Positions 1 through 12,089 of a DNA stretch of 49,083 nucleotides are shown here, piece by piece. The notes beneath the pieces are model-generated. The model worked only from the letters and a program-made list of their open reading frames with translations. It was not told where the DNA came from and ran no database searches. A program made the position numbers and the translations under genes. Numbering within the stretch: position 1 is the stretch's first letter; each line of letters opens with the position of its first letter. The stretch spans positions 1-49,083 of the forward strand of contig CACXGR010000262.1 of the NCBI GenBank assembly GCA_902767235.1. Direction: 5' to 3'. The stretch comes from an uncultured Lachnospiraceae bacterium. Lineage in GTDB: Bacteria; Bacillota; Clostridia; Lachnospirales; Lachnospiraceae.

Positions 1-2196
1 GAGAGCGAGAAGACAAAGGGGGAGATCTTTATCTCCCCGGACATTGCGATCTGCGACGACTGCAGGAGAGAACTTGAGGACCCCGGTGACCGCAGATACC
101 TGCATCCCTTCATCAACTGCACCTGCTGCGGCCCCAGGCTCACCATACTGGATGCCCTTCCCTACGACAGGGAGCGGACCAGCATGAAAATGTTCCCCAT
201 GTGCCCGGTATGTGAGCGGGAATACCACTCCCCGCTCAGCAGAAGGTACGACGCACAGCCTGTCTGCTGCAACGACTGCGGACCGGAGGTGTATCTGGCG
301 GGCGATCATGAGGTGAGGGGGCGCGAGGCCATCACATACACCCGGCGTGTCATTTCGCAGGGCGGCATTGCCGCTGTCAAGGGGATCGGCGGATTTCATC
401 TGTGCTGCGACGCGTCCAATGAGGAGGCGGTCGCAGAGCTCCGCAGGAGAAAGAACAGACCTGCAAAACCCTTTGCCGTGATGATGCGGGATGAGAAGGC
501 CGTGGAGCGGGAGTGCGAAATGAGCGCGGCACAGCGGGAGATCCTGACCGGGCACCAGAAACCGATCCTGCTGCTGTCAAAGAAAGAGGGCGGAAAGCTC
601 TGCAGGGGGATCGCGCCCGGCAATCCCACCGTCGGCGTCATGCTGCCCTATGCCCCGGTGCAGGTGCTTCTCTTTGACTACCCGGACGGCATCACCATGC
701 CGGACTGTCTGGTCATGACCAGCGGCAACATATCGGGCGCACCGATCTGCCGGGACGACACAGAGGCGATGCAGGAGCTGGGAAATATCTGCGACTGCAT
801 TTTGTCCCACAACCGAAAGATACGGATCCGGGCGGACGACTCCGTCATGGATTTCTTTGAGGGAGCGCCCTACATGATCAGAAGGTCCCGCGGATATGCG
901 CCGCTTCCCTACATGCTCTCCAAGTGGGATGAAGCTGCAGAGAAGATCTCCGGCGCCGGCGTGCTGGCCATCGGAGGAGAGCTCAAGAACACATTTTGTA
1001 TCGGGACAGGGGGGCTCTTTTATCCCTCGTCCTATATCGGGGATCTGGCGGACGTCCGAAGCGTGCGGGCGCTGGAGGAGACGATCGAGCGCTATGCATC
1101 CCTTCTGGAAGTCAGGCCGGATGTGATCGCCTGTGACCTGCATCCGAGGTACAATTCCCTTATCGTTGCGGAGAAAATGGCGGAGCGAATGGGCGGGGAA
1201 AACGGCAGCGGTCCGCTTCCCGTCATCAAAGTACAGCACCACTACGCGCACATTCTCAGCTGTATGGCGGAGAACGACCATCACGGCCCGGTCATCGGCG
1301 TGTCCATGGACGGGACCGGTTTCGGAACGGACGGGACCATATGGGGCGGCGAGATCCTGACAGCGGACTACAGGGGCTTTACCAGAGACGCCTCGATAAA
1401 GCCCTTCCTGCAGGTGGGCGGTGACATGTCGTCCCGGGACGGATGGAGGATCGCGGTGTCCATGCTCAGCACAATGGCCAGCCGCGGGGTATTTGAAAGG
1501 GAGGATGCAGAGCCGGGAGAGACGGCCTCTTTACCGGATGTGACAGAATTAGCCGGACTTTTGGGCCTGTGCACGGCACAGGAAGCATCGGTCATATCGA
1601 AGATGGCGCGCAGGAAGATGAACGCGGTGACATCCACCAGCGCGGGCCGGCTGTTTGATGCGGTCAGCGCGATCTGCGGCATATGCAGGCACTCCACATT
1701 CGAGGGAGAGGCTTCAATGGCGCTGGAGTTTGCGGCGGAGCGCTATGAGAAAGGGGCGGCAGAGGCGGAGATGGAAACCGCGCAAAAGAGCGATGCGTAT
1801 GGGCGCACAGGAGGTCCCGCGGACATTCCGGCCAGGGAGGCGGGGAGATGGATCCTGCCGACCGGGGAGATCGTCGCGGATATCGTGCGGCAAAGGCTGG
1901 AGGGAGAGGATCCGGACCGGCTGGCGTGGATCTTCCACAGGCGTCTGGCGGACCAGGTCATCGCCTGCTGCGTCCGCATCAGAGAGGAAAAGGGGATCAC
2001 AGCTGCAGCGCTGAGCGGCGGCTGTTTCCAGAACAGACTGCTGCTCGGATTTGTGAGGGACGGCCTGCGGGCAGAGGGATTTGAGGTGCTCACGCATCAT
2101 CTTGTGCCGCCCAATGACGGCGGGATCGCCCTGGGACAGGCCGCTGCCGCCATGCAGGCGCTGGCAGACGGAAGGATAGAGATCAGGAAGCAGTAA
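1..2196 (+). CDS. hypF: Carbamoyltransferase HypF (5' end lies upstream of the window)
   Basis: Frame is open from base 1 (ESEKTKGEIFISPDIAICDDC...FINCTCCGPR...CPVC). It has zinc-finger motifs, KGIGGFHL, RRSRGYAP, the Kae1-like QHHYAH and DGTGFGTDG motifs, and C-terminal PPNDGGIALGQ. Confidence 0.97.
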   Translation, partial: ESEKTKGEIFISPDIAICDDCRRELEDPGDRRYLHPFINCTCCGPRLTILDALPYDRERTSMKMFPMCPVCEREYHSPLSRRYDAQPVCCNDCGPEVYLAGDHEVRGREAITYTRRVISQGGIAAVKGIGGFHLCCDASNEEAVAELRRRKNRPAKPFAVMMRDEKAVERECEMSAAQREILTGHQKPILLLSKKEGGKLCRGIAPGNPTVGVMLPYAPVQVLLFDYPDGITMPDCLVMTSGNISGAPICRDDTEAMQELGNICDCILSHNRKIRIRADDSVMDFFEGAPYMIRRSRGYAPLPYMLSKWDEAAEKISGAGVLAIGGELKNTFCIGTGGLFYPSSYIGDLADVRSVRALEETIERYASLLEVRPDVIACDLHPRYNSLIVAEKMAERMGGENGSGPLPVIKVQHHYAHILSCMAENDHHGPVIGVSMDGTGFGTDGTIWGGEILTADYRGFTRDASIKPFLQVGGDMSSRDGWRIAVSMLSTMASRGVFEREDAEPGETASLPDVTELAGLLGLCTAQEASVISKMARRKMNAVTSTSAGRLFDAVSAICGICRHSTFEGEASMALEFAAERYEKGAAEAEMETAQKSDAYGRTGGPADIPAREAGRWILPTGEIVADIVRQRLEGEDPDRLAWIFHRRLADQVIACCVRIREEKGITAAALSGGCFQNRLLLGFVRDGLRAEGFEVLTHHLVPPNDGGIALGQAAAAMQALADGRIEIRKQ

Positions 2197-2207
2197 AGGA
2201 GATCAAT

Positions 2208-2420
2208 ATGTGTGTCGGATTATCAGCAAGAGTAGTGAAGATCAATGAAAACGGGATGGCGCTCGTGGACGCCAGCGGTGCCAAAAGACAGGTCTCCGCA
2301 CAGCTTCTGCAGGACCTGGAGCCCGGCGACTATGTCATGGTCCACGCCGGTGCGGCCATCGCAAAGATCACAAATGACGATGTGACAGAGACAGAGGAGC
2401 TGCTGGAGGAATACTTATGA
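2208..2420 (+). CDS. hypC: HypC/HupF family chaperone
   Basis: 70 aa, N-terminal Met-Cys (MCVGL), PGDYVMVHAGAAI with the conserved His; lies between hypF and hypD; RBS AGGAGA. Confidence 0.95.
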   Translation: MCVGLSARVVKINENGMALVDASGAKRQVSAQLLQDLEPGDYVMVHAGAAIAKITNDDVTETEELLEEYL

Positions 2421-3487
2421 CGGCCGCAGAGGGAAAGGAAAAGAGAGACGCGGGCAGAAGATCGGCGCTGGAGATCCTGAAAAACTACAGCGGCCCGGAC
2501 GTCCGGATCATGGAGGTGTGCGGGACCCACACACACGAGATCTTCAGGCTGGGGATCCGGAAGATCCTTCCTCCGTCCGTGAAGATGATCTCCGGGCCGG
2601 GATGTCCGGTGTGTGTGACGCCGGTCAATTATATCGACGAGGCACTTATGCTGGCCGGGGAGCACGGCTGCACGATCTGCACCTTCGGGGACCTCGTGAG
2701 AGTTCCCGGCACATCGTCCAGCCTGCAGAAGCAAAGAGGCGCCGGGGCAAAGGTAAAAGTGGTCTACGCTCCTTCTGACGCAGTGGAATACGCCGCAGCC
2801 CATCCCGGGGAGCAGGTCGTCTTTCTCTCGGTCGGATTCGAGACGACGACGCCGTCGGTCTGCCTGGCGGTGAAAGACGCCATGGAGAGGGGCGTGGAGA
2901 ATTTCTCTGTCTTGACAGCCAACAAGACCATGCCGGGCGCCTATGAAGCCATGAAGGACAGCACAGATCTCTTTCTGTATCCGGGACACGTGCATGCGAT
3001 CATAGGGACCGGGATCTGCGAGCAGCTGGCGGAGAGAGGCGTCAGCGGCATTTGTGCCGGATTTACGGCCCCGGAGCTCGTGACCGCGCTCGCTGTCGGC
3101 GTGACCCGGTTTGAGAGAGGGGAGCCTTTCTTTGTAAACTGCTATCCCAGAGTCGTCAAAGCGGAGGGACAGCCCGCGGCGGTCCGGCTGGTGGCGGAGA
3201 TGATGGAGCCCTGTGACAGTGAGTGGAGAGGGATCGGAGAGATCCCCCTGTCCGGTATGAAGCTCCGGGAGAAGTATGCGTCGTATGACGCAAGGGTCCG
3301 ATTCAGTCTGCCCAAAGTCACAGGCAGGGTCAATCCCGCCTGCCGCTGCGGCGAGGTGCTTCAGGGCAAGTGCCTGCCCTCGGACTGCCCGGTCTTTGGA
3401 AAAGGATGCACGCCCGAGCACCCGGTGGGCGCCTGTATGGTGTCGGGTGAAGGCGCATGTTCGGCGTTTTATTTGTACGGAGGTTGA
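2417..3487 (+). CDS. hypD: Hydrogenase formation protein HypD
   Basis: MEVCGTHTH, GPGCPVC, GFETT, PGHV and C-terminal CRC...C...C...CMVSGEGAC motifs; ATGA overlap with hypC. Confidence 0.97.
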   Translation: MTAAEGKEKRDAGRRSALEILKNYSGPDVRIMEVCGTHTHEIFRLGIRKILPPSVKMISGPGCPVCVTPVNYIDEALMLAGEHGCTICTFGDLVRVPGTSSSLQKQRGAGAKVKVVYAPSDAVEYAAAHPGEQVVFLSVGFETTTPSVCLAVKDAMERGVENFSVLTANKTMPGAYEAMKDSTDLFLYPGHVHAIIGTGICEQLAERGVSGICAGFTAPELVTALAVGVTRFERGEPFFVNCYPRVVKAEGQPAAVRLVAEMMEPCDSEWRGIGEIPLSGMKLREKYASYDARVRFSLPKVTGRVNPACRCGEVLQGKCLPSDCPVFGKGCTPEHPVGACMVSGEGACSAFYLYGG

Positions 3488-3488
3488 G

Positions 3489-4508
3489 ATGAAAAATGAA
3501 GCAGTAAGCGGCACGGTCACACTGGCGCACGGAGCGGGAGGAAAGCAGACCTCCGAGCTCATTGACAGGATATTCAAGCGGCATTTTGCCAACCCCCTCT
3601 TCACGGCCGACGACGCCGCCGTGATCGAGATGGAAAAGGGACGGATCGCGATGTCGACAGACAGCTTTATCGTATCCCCCGCCTTCTTTGCGGGCGGAAA
3701 CATCGGCAAACTGGCGATCTGCGGCACTGTCAACGATCTGGCCTGCATGGGCGCTGTGCCCAAATATCTCACCTGCGCCTTCGTGATCGAAGAGGGATTT
3801 GAGATCAAAAAGCTGGAGGAGATCGCGGAAGCGATGGAAAAGACCGCGCTGGAGGCAGGCGTCTGCATCGTCGCGGGTGACACCAAAGTGACGGGCAAAG
3901 GACAGGCAGACGGCGTTTTCATCAACACCACGGGCGTGGGCATCATTCCGGAAGGAATCCGCACGTCCGGCGCGCTTGCCGCGCCAGGAGACGTCGTCAT
4001 TGTCACCGGCGATATCGGGCGGCATGGCTGCACCATCCTTTTGGAGAGAGATGACTTCGGGATCGAGGCAGATGTGACCAGCGACTGCGCACCGCTGGGA
4101 AAGGCCGTGCAGGCTGCCCTGCAGGCGGTGCCGGACATCCATGTGATCCGGGACGCCACCAGGGGCGGCGTCGGAACGGTACTGTATGAGATCGCGGGCC
4201 AAAGCGGCGTGGGCGTCAATCTCGACGCGGCGTCCATACCCGTGGATCCGTCTGTCAGGGGCGTCTGCGGCCTTCTGGGGCTGGAACCGCTCTATCTGGC
4301 CTGCGAGGGAAGACTGGTGATGGTGTGCCCCGAAGACAAGGCCCCGCAGCTTCTTGAGGCGCTCCGCGGCTGCAGGTACACGGAAGGCGCTGCCGTGATC
4401 GGCAGGATCACGAAGGAGATGCCGGGCAGAGTCACAATGACGACGCAGATCGGGGCGCAGACGCTCCTCCCGCAGCCCGGAAATGAGCTGCTGCCCAGGA
4501 TCTGCTGA
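3489..4508 (+). CDS. hypE: Carbamoyl dehydratase HypE
   Basis: TLAHGAGG, GTVNDLA, GDTKV, RDATRGG and the C-terminal LPRIC cyanation site; start placed at ATG 3489 after GGAGG. Confidence 0.97.
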   Translation: MKNEAVSGTVTLAHGAGGKQTSELIDRIFKRHFANPLFTADDAAVIEMEKGRIAMSTDSFIVSPAFFAGGNIGKLAICGTVNDLACMGAVPKYLTCAFVIEEGFEIKKLEEIAEAMEKTALEAGVCIVAGDTKVTGKGQADGVFINTTGVGIIPEGIRTSGALAAPGDVVIVTGDIGRHGCTILLERDDFGIEADVTSDCAPLGKAVQAALQAVPDIHVIRDATRGGVGTVLYEIAGQSGVGVNLDAASIPVDPSVRGVCGLLGLEPLYLACEGRLVMVCPEDKAPQLLEALRGCRYTEGAAVIGRITKEMPGRVTMTTQIGAQTLLPQPGNELLPRIC

Positions 4509-4524
4509 CCCCGGAGGATGAACC

Positions 4525-4794
4525 ATGAGCAAAGACACAAGAGTAGCCGTGATCTCGATCATCGTGGAGAACGAGTCGGTCACGCAGAAGATCAATGAGA
4601 TCCTGCACGAGTACCGCGCCTGCATCATCGGGAGAATGGGCATTCCTTACAGAGATAAAGGGATCAGTATCATCAGTGTGGCTGTGGATGCGCCGCAGGA
4701 AGAGATCAGTGCGCTCTCCGGCAAGATCGGCAGACTTCCGGGCATCAGCACCAAGACGGCATATTCCAACGTCATAACAAAGGCGGAAATATAG
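4525..4794 (+). CDS. TM1266-family iron-only hydrogenase system putative regulator (NikR C-terminal/ACT-like fold)
   Basis: 89 aa with [19 protein letters not shown] and [14 protein letters not shown], typical of the family usually found beside hydEFG; RBS GGAGGA. Confidence 0.88.
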
Positions 4795-4807
4795 AGGCGG
4801 ATTGATC

Positions 4808-7006
4808 ATGATCAGATTGGCATTTTACGGAAAAGGCGGTATCGGCAAATCGACCACGGTGTCGAATCTGGCTGTGTGCTGGTCGCGCAGAGGATTGACC
4901 GTTCTGCTGATCGGATGCGATCCCAAGGCGGATGCATCGATCTTCATACGGGAGGGAGCGAAGATCCCCACTGTAATGGATAAGGTCCGGTCCAGGGAGC
5001 CTTTTTCTGTCGGCGACATCGTATATGTGAAAGAGACAGAAAACGGCGGCAGGATCATCTGCGCGGAGGCGGGCGGTCCCCTTCCCGGCAGAGGCTGCGC
5101 CGGCAGAGGCATCATCACTGCGCTGGATACCCTGAGGGAAAAGGGGATCATGGACAAATACAGGCCGGACATCGTGCTCTACGATATTTTGGGAGACGTC
5201 GTATGCGGCGGATTTGCCATGCCCATGCGCGACGGATATGCGGACCGTGTGTACATCGTCACGTCAGGGGAAAATATGTCGATCTATGCGGCGGCCAATA
5301 TAGGGCTCGCCGTGGAGCAGTACAGAGAACGCGGCTATGCGCGGCTCGGCGGCCTCATCCTGAACGAAAGAAAGGTCAAAAGAGAGCCGGAAAAGGTTCA
5401 GGAGCTGGCAGACGAGCTGGGAACTTCTGTGATCGGAACGGTTCCCCGGTCGGACCTCGTCCAGGAGGCGGAGGAGATCGGCAAAACGGTCAGCGAGGCC
5501 TTTCCCCGCTCTGAGATCGCAAAGCGCTACGCGGATCTGGCAGACCGGATCGCCGGAGAATGCAGCATAGCGTATCCGGCCGCCCAGGAGCCGGACCCGG
5601 TACCTGCCGGACACCTGTCTATGGCTGATCCCTTAAAGGATCTCAGTGCGGCTTGCAGGATCCCGGTGGGACAAGCTTCTTTTCCGGCGCCCTTTGCCGC
5701 CGGCCTGGAGTTCAATCCGCCTGTTCACGAGACCTGGAACATCGTGCACATCGGCATGCTGATGCCGCAGTCTCATCAGATCTATATCTGCGCCGACAAC
5801 TGCATGCGGGGTGTCGTCATGACGGCGGCGGAGATGAATGCCATGGACAGGTTTTCCTGTGTGGTGCTGGAAGAAGCGGACATCCATGCCGGAAATCTCG
5901 AGGAGATCACGCTGGAGGGGGTCACAGACGTGCTTGAAAAGCTTCGGAAAAGGAGGGGGGAGGACAAAATGCCGAAGGCGGTCCTGATCTTTCCGGTCTG
6001 CCTGCACCACTTCATGGGATGTGACATGAAATACGTCTACGAACAGCTGGCGGAGCGATTTAAGGAGATCACGTTTGTCAAAGGGTGGATGGATCCGATC
6101 ATGCAGAAGACGGGTCCCTCGCCGGACCAAAAGCTGAGAAAAGCCATGATGGATGTCCTTCAGCCCTCCGCATCAGAAAAGGCCGGAACGGCGCTGCTGG
6201 GAGATATCTACGCACTGGATCCGGACAGCGAGCTCATGCGCCTGATCAAAGCGGCCGACAAAAAGGCGGGCATCCGTTCCCTGCCTCTTCAGATCCAGGA
6301 CTGCCGCACACTGGCGGAGTACCGCGCCCTGTCCGCAAGAAGCGTGCTGATCACCAGAAGCCCTCTTGCGGCGGCTTCGGTCAGACAGACAGCGCGCAGG
6401 ATCGGGGCGCAGGCGCTCTGTCTGCCCGCGGAGACCGGATATGCAAAGATACGGGAACAGCTTGAGGCAGCGGCCCAGGTGATGGGTATATCGCTCGCGG
6501 AAGCCGGGATCGACACAGGAGCGGAAGAAGAGCGCTGTGAGCGGGCGCTGGGCAGACTCCGCGAGAGGATCTCGGATACGCCGATCGCACTGGACGCGGT
6601 CTCTGTCTCGAGGCCGCTGGGCTTTGCCCGCCTCCTCATCGAACACGGATTGAATGTGAGAGAGATCTATCTGGACGCGATCCTTACAGAGGAGGAGAGC
6701 GATTTTACGTGGCTTGCAGATCATTCCCCCGATCTCCTTCTGTGCAGCACGATCCATGTAGGCGGACGCTTTCTTCACGCCGGGCGGCTGGGCAAAGACC
6801 ACAGCCGGTATCTGGCTGTGGGGCCCAAGGCCGCCTGGTATTGCGGCACGGCCCATTTTGTGAACCTGGTCGACCAGGGCGGCATGTGGGGATACAGCGC
6901 GATCCGCAAGCTGGCAGCCCTCATGGAGGAGGCCTGCCGCATCGCCAAAGACACACGGGATCTTGTGCCCAGAAAGGGCCTGGGCTGTGAGAGCATGCTG
7001 CTTTGA
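4808..7006 (+). CDS. Fusion of a NifH-like Fe protein and a nitrogenase component-1-like subunit
   Basis: N-terminal ~255 aa have [30 protein letters not shown] and [15 protein letters not shown] Pro/Ala-rich linker precedes an oxidoreductase component-1-like region ([29 protein letters not shown]). One uninterrupted ORF. Confidence 0.88.
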
Positions 7007-7065
7007 CGGACGGACCGCAGCGGAGCATCCGCTAAGGCGCAATGCGCCTTCACATGGAGGATAAT

Positions 7066-8256
7066 ATGAGACAGACTTACAGGATCCTGCCGGTTTATTC
7101 CGGGGACGTCTCCGGCGTATGTTCGGCGCTGTATGAGCTGGGCGGGATGGTCGTGATGCACGACCCGTCGGGCTGCAATTCCACCTACAATACCCACGAC
7201 GAGACGCGCTGGTATGACCATGACAGCCTGATCTTTCTGTCCGGTCTTTGTGAGCCGGACGCCATCATGGGAAATGACGACAAGTTCATAGACGATGTGA
7301 TCAGGGCGGCCGCAGCCTGTTCGCCGGCATTTATCGCGCTGTGCAATTCGCCCGTCCCTTATCTGACCGGGACGGACTTTGCGGGCATCAGCGCGGTCAT
7401 CGAGGTGAGGACCGGTATACCGGTCTTCTATGTCCCGACAAACGGGATGCACGACTACATAAGCGGCGCGGGGATGGCCTGGGAACGGCTGGCACGGAAA
7501 TGGTTCGGCGAAGACAAAAACCGTCCGGCGCACGCCGGATCTTGTCCCGGTGCCCCAAAGGTCAGTGTGCTCGGCATGACGCCGCTGGATTTTGCCGCCG
7601 CCGGATGCGGGGACGCTCTCCAAAAAGTGCTGAGAGAGGGCGGCTTTGCGGCAGGCCCGGTATGGGCTATGGGCAGCTCCCTGCGGGAAATAGAGAAAAC
7701 GCCCTCGGCAGACGTCAATCTGGTGGTATCGGCGTCCGGTCTTCCCCTCGCAAAGTACCTGCACAGGCGGTTCGGGACGCCATGGACAGCCGGACTTCCC
7801 CTGCCCGGCCATACCGGCGGCGTGTTCCGCTCAATTGAGGAGGCAGTGGACAGCGGCAGCTGCGGCTGTGCTTACATGAGGGACCTGCCGGAAGGCTCCT
7901 GTGCATGCACAGCGCCGGAGGTCATCGTGATCGGTGAGCCGGTCAGCGCCTGCAGCATCGCTTATGTCTGCGAATCCAAAGGGTTGACCACCCGGGTCAT
8001 TGCCGCCACAGAAGGCAGTGAAGACCTGATCCGCCCCGGCGATCTCGTCTGCCGCGGCGAAGAAGAGACAGAGAACGCGCTCAGCGGCTTGTGCCGGCCG
8101 GGCACCAGGGTCCTTGCGGATCCCATGTACGAACGGATCTGCCCGGCGGGAACGGACTTTATCCCGATCCCTCATCTTGCTTTTTCAGGCAGGGTATACC
8201 GGAGCAGATTTATGAATCTTTTTGAAGCGGAAACCGCCCGCGGAATATTCGGCTGA
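7066..8256 (+). CDS. Nitrogenase component-1-like subunit (NifK/BchB/CfbD-like)
   Basis: VMHDPSGCNSTY resembles NifK HGSQGC and BchB HGPQGD; also DAIMGND, PYLTGTDF, ADVNLVVSASG, and LAKYLHRRFGTPW; RBS GGAGGA at 7056-7061. Confidence 0.85.
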   Translation: MRQTYRILPVYSGDVSGVCSALYELGGMVVMHDPSGCNSTYNTHDETRWYDHDSLIFLSGLCEPDAIMGNDDKFIDDVIRAAAACSPAFIALCNSPVPYLTGTDFAGISAVIEVRTGIPVFYVPTNGMHDYISGAGMAWERLARKWFGEDKNRPAHAGSCPGAPKVSVLGMTPLDFAAAGCGDALQKVLREGGFAAGPVWAMGSSLREIEKTPSADVNLVVSASGLPLAKYLHRRFGTPWTAGLPLPGHTGGVFRSIEEAVDSGSCGCAYMRDLPEGSCACTAPEVIVIGEPVSACSIAYVCESKGLTTRVIAATEGSEDLIRPGDLVCRGEEETENALSGLCRPGTRVLADPMYERICPAGTDFIPIPHLAFSGRVYRSRFMNLFEAETARGIFG

Positions 8257-8313
8257 TCCGGTGTATCCGGCACAGCGGCGGTCAGGGACATATGACAAAC
8301 GGAGGTGATCAGT

Positions 8314-9531
8314 ATGGGACTGAATGCAGCGCCGACAGGGGAACGCGTCCACATCGGTTTTTTCGGGAGAAGAAACGCCGGGAAATCGAGTCTGGTCAAT
8401 GCGGTCACAGACCAGGAGATCTCCGTGGTATCGGACACCAAGGGCACCACGACGGATCCGGTGAATAAATCCATGGAGCTCCTTCCGCTGGGACCGGTGG
8501 TCATCATAGACACGCCCGGTTTCGATGATGAGGGCGCGCTGGGCGAAAAGCGCGTGCAGCGGGCCAAAAGAGTGCTCAACCGCACCGATATCGCTGTGCT
8601 CGTCGCAGACGCAGTGAGCGGTATGGGAGAGGCGGACAGGGAACTGGTCCGGCTCTTTGAAGAGAAAGAGATCCCCTATGTCGTCGTATTCAACAAGGCG
8701 GATCTGATCGGAAAGATCCCTTGCAAAGGCGCAGAAAATGCGGAACCGGGGAGAGAACCCCTTTATGTCAGCGCCCTGACCGGCGCCGGCATCCATGCAC
8801 TCAAGGAGAGACTGGCCGGCATGGGACAGACCGGCAGCCGGCATACCCCCCTTGTCGAGGATCTGGTCAGCCCATCGGAGATCGTCCTGCTGGTGATCCC
8901 CATTGACAAAGCTGCTCCTAGAGGAAGGCTGATCCTGCCGCAGCAGATGACCATCAGAGGCATACTGGACGCGGACGGGATCCCGGTCTGCGTCAAGCAG
9001 GACAGGCTTAAGGAAGTGCTGGAGAGATTCGGAGATGATCCCGCCGGCCGGCCGGGGCTTGTCATCACAGACAGCCAGGTCTTTGAGGAAGTGGCCGCCG
9101 CCGTACCGCAGAGCATACCGCTCACTTCCTTTTCTATTTTGATGGCGAGATACAAGGGATTTCTGAACGCGGCCCTGGAAGGCGTGAAGCAGATCGACGC
9201 CCTGACGGACGGGGACACGGTCCTGATCTCGGAGGGATGCACCCACCACAGGCAGTGCGGCGATATAGGGACCGCAAAGCTGCCCGCCTGGATCCAAAAG
9301 CGGACCGGGAAAAAGATCCGCTTTGAGACTTCATCGGGGACCGGATTTCCGGAGGACCTTGGAAAATATAAAATGGTCATCCACTGCGGCGGCTGCATGC
9401 TGAACGAGAGGGAGATGCGCTTTCGGATGAAATGCGCCGCGGACCAGGGTGTCCCTTTTACCAATTACGGGACGGCCATCGCCCATATGAAGGGAATCCT
9501 GGACAGAAGTACCGCGATCGTGCGGAAGTAA
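8314..9531 (+). CDS. hydF: [FeFe]-hydrogenase H-cluster maturation GTPase HydF
   Basis: GRRNAGKSS, GTTTDPV, DTPG and NKAD GTPase motifs; GRLILPQ; Fe-S motif EGCTHH...HCGGC. Confidence 0.96.
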   Translation: MGLNAAPTGERVHIGFFGRRNAGKSSLVNAVTDQEISVVSDTKGTTTDPVNKSMELLPLGPVVIIDTPGFDDEGALGEKRVQRAKRVLNRTDIAVLVADAVSGMGEADRELVRLFEEKEIPYVVVFNKADLIGKIPCKGAENAEPGREPLYVSALTGAGIHALKERLAGMGQTGSRHTPLVEDLVSPSEIVLLVIPIDKAAPRGRLILPQQMTIRGILDADGIPVCVKQDRLKEVLERFGDDPAGRPGLVITDSQVFEEVAAAVPQSIPLTSFSILMARYKGFLNAALEGVKQIDALTDGDTVLISEGCTHHRQCGDIGTAKLPAWIQKRTGKKIRFETSSGTGFPEDLGKYKMVIHCGGCMLNEREMRFRMKCAADQGVPFTNYGTAIAHMKGILDRSTAIVRK

Positions 9532-9553
9532 GACCTTTGACGGGAGGAACACG

Positions 9554-10687
9554 ATGCACGTCGAAGAACTGGTGAAAAGCCTGAGAGAGAACAGTATACT
9601 GAGCAGAGAGGAGCTGCGGCAGCTTCTGTCCGGTTACGGGGTGCTTGAGGAGAGATCTCCTGTGCGGGACGTAAAGATGTGCGAAACACTGCCGGGGGCA
9701 CGCTGCACAAAAGAGGAGTCCTTTTTATTTGAAAACGCGCGGCAGGTCCGGGAGAGATCCTACGGCAAAGATGTCTATCTGCGCGGCCTGATCGAGTTTA
9801 CCAATTACTGCCGATGCGACTGCCGCTACTGCGGGATCCGCAGGAGCAACACGGTGGCACAGAGATACCGGCTGAGCAGAGAGCAGATACTGGACTGCTG
9901 CGAAGAAGGATACGGCCTGGGCTTTCGGACTTTTGTCCTGCAGGGCGGAGAGGACATGGCTTATTCGGACGGACAGATCTGCGAGCTGGTCTCTTCCATA
10001 AAGAGCAGATACGGGGACTGCGCCGTGACGCTGTCAATAGGGGAGCGGAAAAGAGAGTCCTACCGGGCCTATTTTGACGCCGGCGCCGACCGCTATCTCC
10101 TCAGACAGGAGACTTCCGACCCCGCGCATTACCGCTATCTTCATCCCGAACAGCAGACGATCGAGAACCGAAAGAGATGTCTCTGGGATCTGAGGGAGAT
10201 CGGATACCAGGTCGGCTGCGGCATAATGACGGGCTCACCGGGGCAGACGACGGAGCACATCATTGAGGACCTGCTCTTTATGAAGGAACTGTCGCCGCAA
10301 ATGATCGGGATCGGGCCCTTTATACCGCACAAAGACACCCCATTCGCCCGGGAAAAGGCAGGTACCCTGCAGGACACGCTGATCCTGCTGGCCGTGATCA
10401 GGCTGATGATGCCGGACGTGCTCCTGCCCGCGACGACGGCGCTCGGCACGATCGATCCCCTGGGAAGGGAGAGGGGACTCTTAGCCGGCGCGAATGTGAT
10501 CATGCCCAATCTGTCGCCTGCCGGCGTCAGAGGCAAATACCTTCTCTACGACGGCAAAATATGCACCGGCGATGAGGCGGCGCAGTGCCGGATCTGTCTG
10601 GAAAAGCGGGTCGAAAGGACGGGGTACAGGGTGATCATGTCCAGGGGTGACTGCGCCGGCTTCGTCCGCAGGCAAAACAGAGAGTAA
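9554..10687 (+). CDS. hydE: [FeFe]-hydrogenase radical SAM maturase HydE
   Basis: RGLIEFTNY-CxxxCxxC (CRCDCRYC), LQGGED, GADRYLLRQET, GIGPFIPHKDTP, GANVIMPN, YLLYDGK and the auxiliary Cx7Cx2C motif (CTGDEAAQCRIC). Confidence 0.93.
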   Translation: MHVEELVKSLRENSILSREELRQLLSGYGVLEERSPVRDVKMCETLPGARCTKEESFLFENARQVRERSYGKDVYLRGLIEFTNYCRCDCRYCGIRRSNTVAQRYRLSREQILDCCEEGYGLGFRTFVLQGGEDMAYSDGQICELVSSIKSRYGDCAVTLSIGERKRESYRAYFDAGADRYLLRQETSDPAHYRYLHPEQQTIENRKRCLWDLREIGYQVGCGIMTGSPGQTTEHIIEDLLFMKELSPQMIGIGPFIPHKDTPFAREKAGTLQDTLILLAVIRLMMPDVLLPATTALGTIDPLGRERGLLAGANVIMPNLSPAGVRGKYLLYDGKICTGDEAAQCRICLEKRVERTGYRVIMSRGDCAGFVRRQNRE

Positions 10688-10724
10688 TCATACACAGTTC
10701 ATTCATGATCGGAGGAAAAAGCAC

Positions 10725-12089
10725 ATGGGATACAGGATCGAACATGACTCGATGGGAGAGATGATGGTGCCCGAGGAGCGCCTGTGGGGCGCACAGACGC
10801 AGAGAAGCTATCAGAATTTTAAGATCGGCACAGAGAAGATGCCGCAGGAAGTGATCAGGGCCTTTGCGGTCCTGAAATCGGCTGCCGCCATCGCCAACAA
10901 CAGGATCGGCAAACTGGACGATGAGAGATGCAAACTGATCGGAAAAGTCTGTACGGAAATCCTTGAAGGCGGCATGTATGACGAATTTCCGCTCGTGGTA
11001 TGGCAGACCGGAAGCGGCACGCAGTCCAATATGAACGTGAATGAGGTCATCGCGAACCGCGGAAATCAGATCGCGGGCCAAAAGCTTCTTCATCCGAACG
11101 ACACGGTCAATATGTCACAGAGCTCCAACGATACCTTTCCGACCGCAATGAATATTGCCGCCGTCATGTCTCTGAAAAACCGTCTTTATCCGGCCATGGA
11201 GGCACTGATCGCAGAACTCAGACGCCTGGAGAAAGAGAATGAAGGGATCGTAAAGAGCGGGAGGACTCACCTTCAGGACGCCGTCCCGATCGCCTTTTCC
11301 CAGGAGATCAGCGGATGGAGAAATATGATCGAAAAGTGCCGGGATATGATCAGGGACTCGGAAAAAGGCCTCAGAGAGCTGGCACTGGGAGGAACAGCCG
11401 TGGGAACCGGTCTGAACGCACCGGAAGGATTTGCCAAGGAAGCGGCAAAGGCAGTCTCCGAACTTACGGAAGTGGAGTTCTGTTCGGAGGAGAACAAGTT
11501 CCATGCTCTTTCCGCCAAGGACGCGATCGTATTTTCACACGGCTCTCTCAAATCGCTGGCGGCGGACCTTATGAAGATCGCCAACGATGTGCGCTGGCTC
11601 TCCAGCGGTCCCAGATGCGGTCTGGGAGAGATCCTGATCCCCGAGAACGAGCCCGGCAGTTCCATCATGCCCGGAAAGGTAAACCCCACCCAGTGCGAGG
11701 CGGTGACCATGGTGGCCGTGCAGGTCATGGGAAATGACGCCGCCGTCGGATTTGCGGCGTCCCAGGGCAATTTTCAGCTGAACGTATTCATGCCGGTCAT
11801 CATCTACAATTATCTGCAGTCGGTCAGACTGCTCGCGGACTGTATCGATTCCTTTAGGACCAACTGTGTGAGCGGCATAAGGCCCAACAGGGAAAAGATG
11901 GCCCATAATCTCCACAATTCGCTGATGCTGGTGACCGCCCTCAATCCCTACATCGGGTATGAAAATGCGGCGAAGACAGCCAAGCTGGCCTACAAGGAGA
12001 ATATTTCCCTCCGAGAGGCCTGTATACGGCTCGGTTTCCTGACGCCCGACAGATTTGACGAGGTATTTCATCCGGAAGAAATGGTCTGA
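10725..12089 (+). CDS. fumC: Class II fumarate hydratase
   Basis: RIEHDSMG, WQTGSGTQSNMN, GRTHLQDA and the signature GSSIMPGKVNPTQCEA (TQCEA is FumC-type rather than AspA-type). Confidence 0.93.
   Translation: MGYRIEHDSMGEMMVPEERLWGAQTQRSYQNFKIGTEKMPQEVIRAFAVLKSAAAIANNRIGKLDDERCKLIGKVCTEILEGGMYDEFPLVVWQTGSGTQSNMNVNEVIANRGNQIAGQKLLHPNDTVNMSQSSNDTFPTAMNIAAVMSLKNRLYPAMEALIAELRRLEKENEGIVKSGRTHLQDAVPIAFSQEISGWRNMIEKCRDMIRDSEKGLRELALGGTAVGTGLNAPEGFAKEAAKAVSELTEVEFCSEENKFHALSAKDAIVFSHGSLKSLAADLMKIANDVRWLSSGPRCGLGEILIPENEPGSSIMPGKVNPTQCEAVTMVAVQVMGNDAAVGFAASQGNFQLNVFMPVIIYNYLQSVRLLADCIDSFRTNCVSGIRPNREKMAHNLHNSLMLVTALNPYIGYENAAKTAKLAYKENISLREACIRLGFLTPDRFDEVFHPEEMV

Follow-up and report, generated by a model that had tools for sequence, protein, structure and literature searches.

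A conserved operon of HypFCDE, nitrogenase-like, HydF and HydE genes that probably replaces HydG in [FeFe]-hydrogenase maturation

The stretch of DNA analyzed here, referred to as the window, was 49,083 nt of contig CACXGR010000262.1 (forward strand) in assembly GCA_902767235.1, from an uncultured Lachnospiraceae bacterium whose genome (G000) comprised 2.0 Mb and was 77% complete. Its first part (1–12089) held ten same-strand genes with intergenic gaps of −4 to 59 bp, in which maturases of [NiFe]- and [FeFe]-hydrogenases were combined with nitrogenase-like (Nif-like) proteins. The window edge cut hypF. Contig C258, which overlapped the window start by 87 bases, supplied the N-terminus of HypF and a second Nif-like set, nifH2 (256 aa) and a fused nifD2-K2 (850 aa), with gaps of 19 and 11 bp. 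The features were as follows.

1..2196, + strand: hypF, carbamoyltransferase; TIGR00143 at 664 bits (cut-off 466), two zinc fingers, HHYAH
2208..2420, + strand: hypC, second genome copy; TIGR00074 above cut-off, Cys2, VHAG, 40% identity to the Ech-linked copy
2417..3487, + strand: hypD, cluster-specific paralogue; TIGR00075 above cut-off, CGTHTH, GPGCPVC, GFETT, C-terminal cysteines
3489..4508, + strand: hypE; TIGR02124 above cut-off, C-terminal PRIC, 46% identity to the Ech-linked copy
4525..4794, + strand: TM1266-family putative regulator; TIGR03959 above cut-off
4808..7006, + strand: NifH-like ATPase/reductase (H1) fused to NifD-like D1; PF00142 and PF00148, P-loop, both Fe-protein cysteines
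7066..8256, + strand: NifK-like K1; PF00148, one invariant cysteine
8314..9531, + strand: hydF, H-cluster scaffold GTPase; TIGR03918 above cut-off, G1–G4, CTHH, HCGGC
9554..10687, + strand: hydE, radical SAM maturase; TIGR03956 above cut-off, canonical pocket
10725..12089, + strand: class II fumarase-like gene; TIGR00979 above cut-off, TIGR00839 below
C258 3897–3939, minus strand: two-fold symmetric RNA hairpin upstream of nifH2 (locus L082; also L243–L282)

Given the overlap with C258, the unit reads nifH2, nifD2-K2, hypF, hypC, hypD, hypE, TM1266, nifH1-D1, nifK1, hydF and hydE. An earlier note, made from the letters of the window alone, had described ten co-oriented, tightly spaced genes with intact motifs and no clear terminator between them, and this description held. 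A Shine-Dalgarno-like site lay ahead of every start among the ten genes; HypF, HypC, HypD, HypE, TM1266, HydF and HydE each passed the cut-off of one NCBIfam model; and the motif check found the catalytic and cluster-binding motifs in the operon proteins. The terminator scan gave 13 sites compared with 10.2 ± 3.0 in shuffled sequences, which is chance level, and the single weak site on the + strand lay within hypD. Upstream of hypF, where the earlier note had seen a possible place for a [NiFe] operon, C258 carried the second Nif-like set and no such operon. The operon (window 1–10687) had a G+C content of 60%, against 54% for the remainder of the window and 55% for the whole genome. In four ruminant-gut metatranscriptome runs, contigs covered the operon in short pieces, which give no transcript, strand or level. 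The plasmid search returned one match at 26%, and plasmid spread was not indicated.

The cluster was found in 40 other genomes from several families, with mostly the same gene order, although some copies were split over contigs. These comprised 13 of 36 genus relatives, 13 named records, six genomes of a class sample and eight further genomes of family f59. The recurrence for which the earlier note had proposed a check was thus observed. Among the named carriers were Oscillospiraceae, Anaerobutyricum (including A. hallii DSM 3353), Coprococcus, Megasphaera and Ruminococcus, and the carriers were mostly gut and soil Clostridia without HydG. The variation concerned the fusions, the number of nifH genes (one in genus g88) and the position of hydE or hydF, which at times were located elsewhere.

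The anti-correlation with hydG predicted in the earlier note was strong but not absolute: HydG scored above the cut-off in three of the 40 cluster genomes and in none of the other 37. HydF was present in 36 of the 37 cluster genomes tested, mostly as the sole HydF of the genome. The class sample comprised 328 scored Clostridia genomes, at least 92% complete and evenly drawn, with overlaps tallied by hand from lists; HydG was found in 204, HydF in 218, both in 203, and HydF without HydG in 15. A D2 match of at least 588 bits occurred in six of these 328 genomes, all of them HydF-only, and in none of the 203 with both HydF and HydG. A D1 match of at least 549 bits was found in 7 of 269 scored genomes, none with HydG; this draw was taken to be the first part of the 328 list, with ~171 HydG genomes. 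Counting importer-type D1 loci, Nif-like genes were present in 10 of the 15 HydF-only class genomes.

The same division was seen at lower ranks. Genus g88 had four genomes with the cluster and no HydG against three with HydG and no cluster, and the corresponding numbers in genus g212 were three and three. In the genus of G000, HydG was found in 0/13 cluster genomes, and 13 of the 14 HydF genomes carried the cluster. In family f59, HydG was missing in six of nine carriers compared with 12 of 135 non-carriers (123/135 had HydG). Two single-contig genomes, G383 and G411, contained the cluster and HydF, and HydG was not found in either. Unscored genomes stood outside these counts (G171 and G402 in the class sample; G171, G402, G479, G516, G525, G530 and G542 in f59). 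Weak matches to the HydG model (157–218 bits, eight loci), considered as a hidden HydG, were read as ThiH in thiamine operons.

In G000 itself, which is 77% complete, HydE was the sole match to the HydG model, at 53 bits against a cut-off of 312, and searches for a BATS domain and for HypB gave no match; the absence of HydG from this genome alone proves little. The earlier note had reported hydG, hypA/hypB, a maturation protease and hydrogenase subunits as absent from the window. This was true of the window, and HypA, HypB, a protease and a [NiFe] large subunit were all lacking within the operon. It was not true of the genome as regards hypA and the large subunit, whose only matches were on contig C46, and the only HydA match was on contig C174, with TSCCP, PCxxKxxE and ExMxCxxGCxxG intact. 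The C46 operon, which we take from its gene layout to be Ech-type, had its own hypC, hypD and hypE, 40–46% identical to the window copies, so the window hypCDE was a second set. The assembly showed a single hypF. The Ech operons on C46 (L083) and in L189 contained hypCDE, but hypF was not seen in the stretch covered, and the HypF of the cluster may serve both pathways.

Of 28 cluster-locus genomes, just three yielded a [NiFe] large subunit, and in these, as in G000, the [NiFe] operon had a hypD of its own. In a FastTree phylogeny, the 30 rows of cluster HypD grouped in a single branch with support 100, separate from eight others that included the Ech-linked HypD. A [NiFe] enzyme is no fixed partner of the cluster Hyp genes. 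The earlier note had named, as the signs of a mere co-location, a hydG and a [NiFe]-hydrogenase with hypAB in the genome, for example just upstream, and a gene order not conserved elsewhere; instead, there was no HydG match in the 77% complete genome, the [NiFe]-hydrogenase had its own hypA and hypCDE, and the order was conserved.

HydE contained CxxxCxxC and the complex-B pocket with M224 and M291. Numbering by hand from the Thermotoga maritima alignment gave eleven pocket positions, and these were identical in 22 of 22 rows, in cluster and canonical operons alike. The earlier note had proposed trees to see whether the Hyp and Hyd proteins form their own clades, which was the case for HypD and not for HydE, as cluster HydE formed no separate branch in the tree. 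The GTPase motifs and CxH...HCxxC of HydF were intact. According to passages of PMC10114646, HydE takes complex B and handles the Fe(CO)2CN species with its M224 and M291, and synthetic complex B stands in for HydG. The unchanged pocket suggests that the substrate of HydE is unchanged, so it must come from another source. HydA domains were found in 28/28 cluster-locus genomes, and the H-cluster motifs were intact in 31 HydA loci from cluster and non-cluster genomes. In genome G294 a HydA gene was located immediately upstream of the cluster (L137:1450–3183). Some genomes of genus g1 (e.g., G003, G004, G006 and G008) had motif-intact HydA domains, and HydF and HydG were not found in those genomes.

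The leader upstream of nifH2 contained the hairpin listed above, which was composed of two CUGA-N4-RAAG halves and followed by a terminator carrying the complement of the hairpin 5′ end. Across 18 aligned leaders, pairing was seen in 77% of the cells, compared with 66 ± 2% when shuffled (0/500) and 22–55% when slid, and covariation, with changes on both sides, was observed at 6 of 10 hairpin pairs. A model built on 17 Nif-type loci and one canonical locus, whose E-values are rough, gave matches ahead of hydG in 16 of 40 canonical loci (E ≤ 0.4), nine of them under 0.01. In 9 of the 40 canonical loci, the match ended 6–15 nt ahead of the hydG start, covering or abutting the ribosome-binding site. 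Across 1.03 Mb of other loci, all 12 matches at E ≤ 0.1 preceded Nif/Hyd operon genes and four weaker ones lay elsewhere; the model had no match in the window, in 30 hydA loci or in the Ech loci. Rfam gave no hit at the gathering score in five loci, and its E-value mode yielded chance-level matches alone.

Judged by its sequence, the hairpin ties the operon to the hydG control point, independently of the gene counts. It is a candidate regulatory RNA, and from its symmetry and linkage our guess is that TM1266 binds it. The usual company of TM1266 is hydE/hydG/hydF, and it also occurs in canonical hydEGF operons.

The Nif-like proteins belong to the nitrogenase-like (NFL) superfamily, having a NifH-type Fe protein and a PF00148 component-1 pair. 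Their NifH and PF00148 domains matched Pfam, and the scores to named nitrogenase families were far under the cut-off. D1 (36 rows) and D2 formed separate branches with support 100. D2 was seen only adjoining hypF, in every locus long enough to show it, and D1 accompanied HydF genomes whether Hyp was present or not; importer-type D1 rows branched early. In the alignments, K1 had one invariant cysteine and K2 had two, and D1 and D2 each held two at interface-like positions, plus extras, the two agreeing in position with a published pattern (PMC3464626). The set of six P-cluster cysteines was thus not kept, no Cys/His ligand of the FeMo-cofactor was recognized by eye in the D/K alignments, and NifB was above the cut-off in 0/5 genomes scanned. 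Together, the cysteine counts and the NifB result fit one [4Fe-4S] cluster per D/K pair, not a P-cluster plus FeMo-cofactor.

The AlphaFold model of D1 (pLDDT 77.7) had a nitrogenase component-1 fold that did not tell DPOR, nitrogenase and MAR apart. The best Foldseek match was BchN (3aek_A, E 4e-13, TM ~0.4), and nitrogenase and MAR chains scored alike. The predicted complex of HypC, D2 and K2 scored 0.00 and was not used as evidence.

Four HydF-only class genomes (G172, G309, G365 and G393) carried nifH1-D1-K1 without D2. In G172, G365 and G393, this set had hydE, hydF or both as neighbors, together with a FecB/FecCD-type importer, and these genomes gave no HypD match. G309 appeared to have a similar arrangement, with two TM1266-like genes. 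The Hyp-less variant loci L138, L139, L140 and L220 comprised nifH1-D1-K1, an importer, and hydE, hydF or TM1266, and were HydG-negative; in L138 an ABC ATPase was fused to a TM1266 domain, and L220 looked alike. The nearest relatives of D1 and D2 were NifH/D/K-like trios flanked by FecB/FecCD-type importers, with no hyp or hyd genes (L020, L053 and L141–L145; some with CobW-type GTPases), which possibly take part in reductive metal release from imported chelates. One K1 relative of 632 aa (P0117) had an extra ThiF-family domain (PF00899).

The tenth gene matched the class II fumarase model at 717 bits (cut-off 665) and failed the aspartase model (440 vs. 681). A fumarase-like gene lay directly 3′ of hydE in four close relatives. 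Loci L005 and L010–L012, which are more distant clusters, had instead a different, aspA-type gene, ~36% identical to the window gene and named by similarity and position without a profile scan. The placing of aspA beside hydF is accounted for in a passage of PMC11736057. The fumarase-like gene is probably a passenger and not a core part.

Compared with the canonical operon TM1266-hydE-hydG-hydF(-aspA), the cluster shared TM1266, the HydE pocket, the HydF motifs and the leader hairpin, and several relatives shared an aspA-type gene. However, HydG was not found, and HypFCDE and two NifH/D/K-like sets were present in the operon instead. HypC, D, E and F agreed with those of the [NiFe] HypABCDEF system in motifs and curated cut-offs, whereas the operon was without HypA, HypB, protease and large subunit, its HypD was on a branch of its own, and its carriers mostly showed no [NiFe] enzyme. 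DPOR/COR (BchL-BchNB) and CfbCD have the component-1 fold and interface cysteines that number about three and suffice for one [4Fe-4S]; a passage of PMC13474568 gives one such cluster per DPOR pair. They differed in that the identity was 17% and the family scores were far below the cut-off, and no tetrapyrrole genes were seen in the annotated cluster loci. MAR (MarBHDK) is alike in its NifH/D/K-type architecture, but its P-cluster cysteines number six and it depends on MarB or NifB, whereas the operon proteins had about three cysteines and NifB was above the cut-off in none of five genomes.

Passages of PMC3464626 (Dos Santos et al., 2012) describe two linked NifHEN-like copies by hydrogenase maturation genes in Coprococcus catus, Dorea longicatena and other Firmicutes, and guess at a role in active-site assembly. 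By that description, and not by a comparison of sequences, this clade is alike in its two linked copies, its nifH-nifE fusions and its cysteines (two in D, one in K); the same passages name no pathway, link to a missing hydG, D1/D2 split, importer variant or RNA element. Passages of PMC9431212 (2022) report hydE and hydF in 8/8 acetogenic Clostridium species and hydG in three, and hypCDEF without hypAB in five, and leave both unexplained there. D2-family protein records, which say nothing of gene order, were found for 5/5 of the acetogens without hydG (including C. ljungdahlii) and also for two with hydG. The gene linkage was thus noted in 2012 and the missing HydG in 2022, and no work joining both was found. 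Term searches of three 2026 papers on nitrogenase-like enzymes returned no passage on this link, and the literature searched, mainly outside subscription journals and aside from supplements, contained no paper proposing a HydG-independent route or the hairpin.

In hydrogenase maturation, HypF and HypE make cyanide from carbamoyl phosphate, HypC and HypD assemble Fe(CN)2CO, and the CO and CN of the H-cluster are credited to HydG. We propose that the operon replaces HydG and provides a HydG-independent route to the iron unit of the H-cluster, to which we give a probability of about 0.75. Such a route had been suggested in the earlier note, with the Nif-like reductase as a putative supplier of low-potential electrons, and the near-exclusion of HydG, the conserved gene order and the shared leader support it. 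HypFCDE would build Fe(CN)2CO, and H2-D2K2 would take this HypCD product and, with ATP-driven electrons passing through one [4Fe-4S], start its conversion from two CN and one CO to one CN and two CO. H1-D1K1 would then complete the exchange, load cysteine and pass the unit to HydE. The product would be the Fe(CO)2(CN)-cysteine unit (complex B), which HydE and HydF would turn into the H-cluster. Where a genome has D1K1 and a metal-chelate importer but no Hyp, the precursor would be imported rather than made. We infer every step from Fe(CN)2CO to complex B, including the second CO source. The division of labor between H2-D2K2 and H1-D1K1 is a tentative suggestion. That there is a full second pathway to the H-cluster, with Nif-like remodeling of Fe(CN)2CO, a stable intermediate that can be imported and a hairpin, probably read by TM1266, that controls the CO/CN-iron source, seems somewhat less likely than its opposite.

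Several points weigh against the replacement of HydG. HydG and the cluster occurred together in 3/9 f59 genomes. Genomes G066 and G067 (L010 and L011) had a canonical hydE-hydG-hydF plus a partial cluster (split or cut nifH1, D1, K1, hydF and the aspA-type gene), with no D2 or HypD found; this copy may be what remained of a cluster that decayed once HydG had been regained, or an effect of broken contigs. Five of the 15 HydF-only class genomes, and also G021 and G057, had no D1 match. These seven HydF genomes without HydG or D1 (G021, G056, G057, G131, G148, G201 and G226) indicate that HydG can be missing without the cluster; in G056, TM1266-hydE-hydF were adjacent. Among 23 non-cluster relatives, 20 also had a HydA domain, and in 18 of those both HydF and HydG were missing; as HydA did not discriminate, its presence was not used as a test. 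Many cluster genomes, G000 included, were incomplete metagenome-assembled genomes, and since kin are not independent, Fisher tests overstate the exclusion. In several genomes hydF or hydE was away from the cluster, and HydE was looked for at the loci, not genome-wide. As for the chemistry, each step of the pathway would rest on inference from homologues. The CO:CN ratio of Fe(CN)2CO is wrong, and the extra CO and the cysteine loading are without an identified source.

Three other explanations were considered. It is unlikely that the route, though independent of HydG, involves Hyp handing CN and CO, free or on iron, directly to HydE/HydF, with the Nif-like proteins supplying iron or sulfur (C-S cleavage, cf. 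MAR and isethionate reductase) or releasing metal from imported chelates. The importer-linked relatives of D1 and D2, some beside CobW-type GTPases and none with hyp or hyd, would agree with such a role, as would the C-S bonds cut by characterized group IV nitrogenase-like enzymes, and HydE and HydF activate HydA slightly, and more with added CO or CN (cited in a passage of PMC9431212). However, D2 adjoined hypF in every locus long enough to show it, a better match to a hand-over from Hyp than to general sulfur supply, the neighborhoods of the clusters showed no genes of sulfur metabolism, and MAR requires MarB or NifB, of which NifB was above the cut-off in none of the five genomes.

The earlier note had also raised the possibility that the Nif-like protein is itself the recipient of the cofactor. 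That Hyp and Hyd together make a new Fe-CO/CN cofactor for Nif-like end enzymes appears quite improbable, even though the two D/K pairs resemble the scaffold-plus-catalyst layout of NifEN/NifDK, the FeMo-cofactor ligands were by eye missing from D/K, and most of these operons have no hydrogenase gene. It leaves the hydG exclusion, the hydG-type leader hairpin and the unchanged HydE pocket unexplained, and cluster HydE has no branch of its own and cluster HydF is mostly the only HydF of the genome. The Nif-like protein as recipient thus became less likely. A chance meeting of two ordinary maturation sets, with HypFCDE serving Ech and with hydG missed by the assembly or its place taken by ThiH or some divergent radical SAM enzyme, is very unlikely. 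It could appeal to the 77% completeness, the Ech operon and the single hypF of G000, and to ThiH-like genes in 5 of 13 cluster genomes of the genus. But the Ech operon brings its own hypCDE, 25 of 28 cluster-locus genomes yielded no [NiFe] large subunit, and the ThiH-like genes sit in thiG-thiH-thiE-type operons, with none found in G000; the single-contig genomes G383 and G411 contradict it.

The operon is a real, conserved system and probably a variant of [FeFe]-hydrogenase maturation, and no characterized counterpart of its replacement chemistry was found. The proposed replacement of HydG can be tested directly, because C. ljungdahlii has D2-family protein records and A. hallii the cluster. 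If it is true, the carbamoyl-phosphate route of Hyp would join the two hydrogenase cofactor pathways, and an uncharacterized nitrogenase-like clade would gain a metal carbonyl as substrate. It would also solve the puzzle, set out in passages of PMC9431212, of industrial acetogens that have hydE, hydF and hypCDEF and lack hydG and hypAB, and the annotation of H2 producers in rumen and gut genomes would change.

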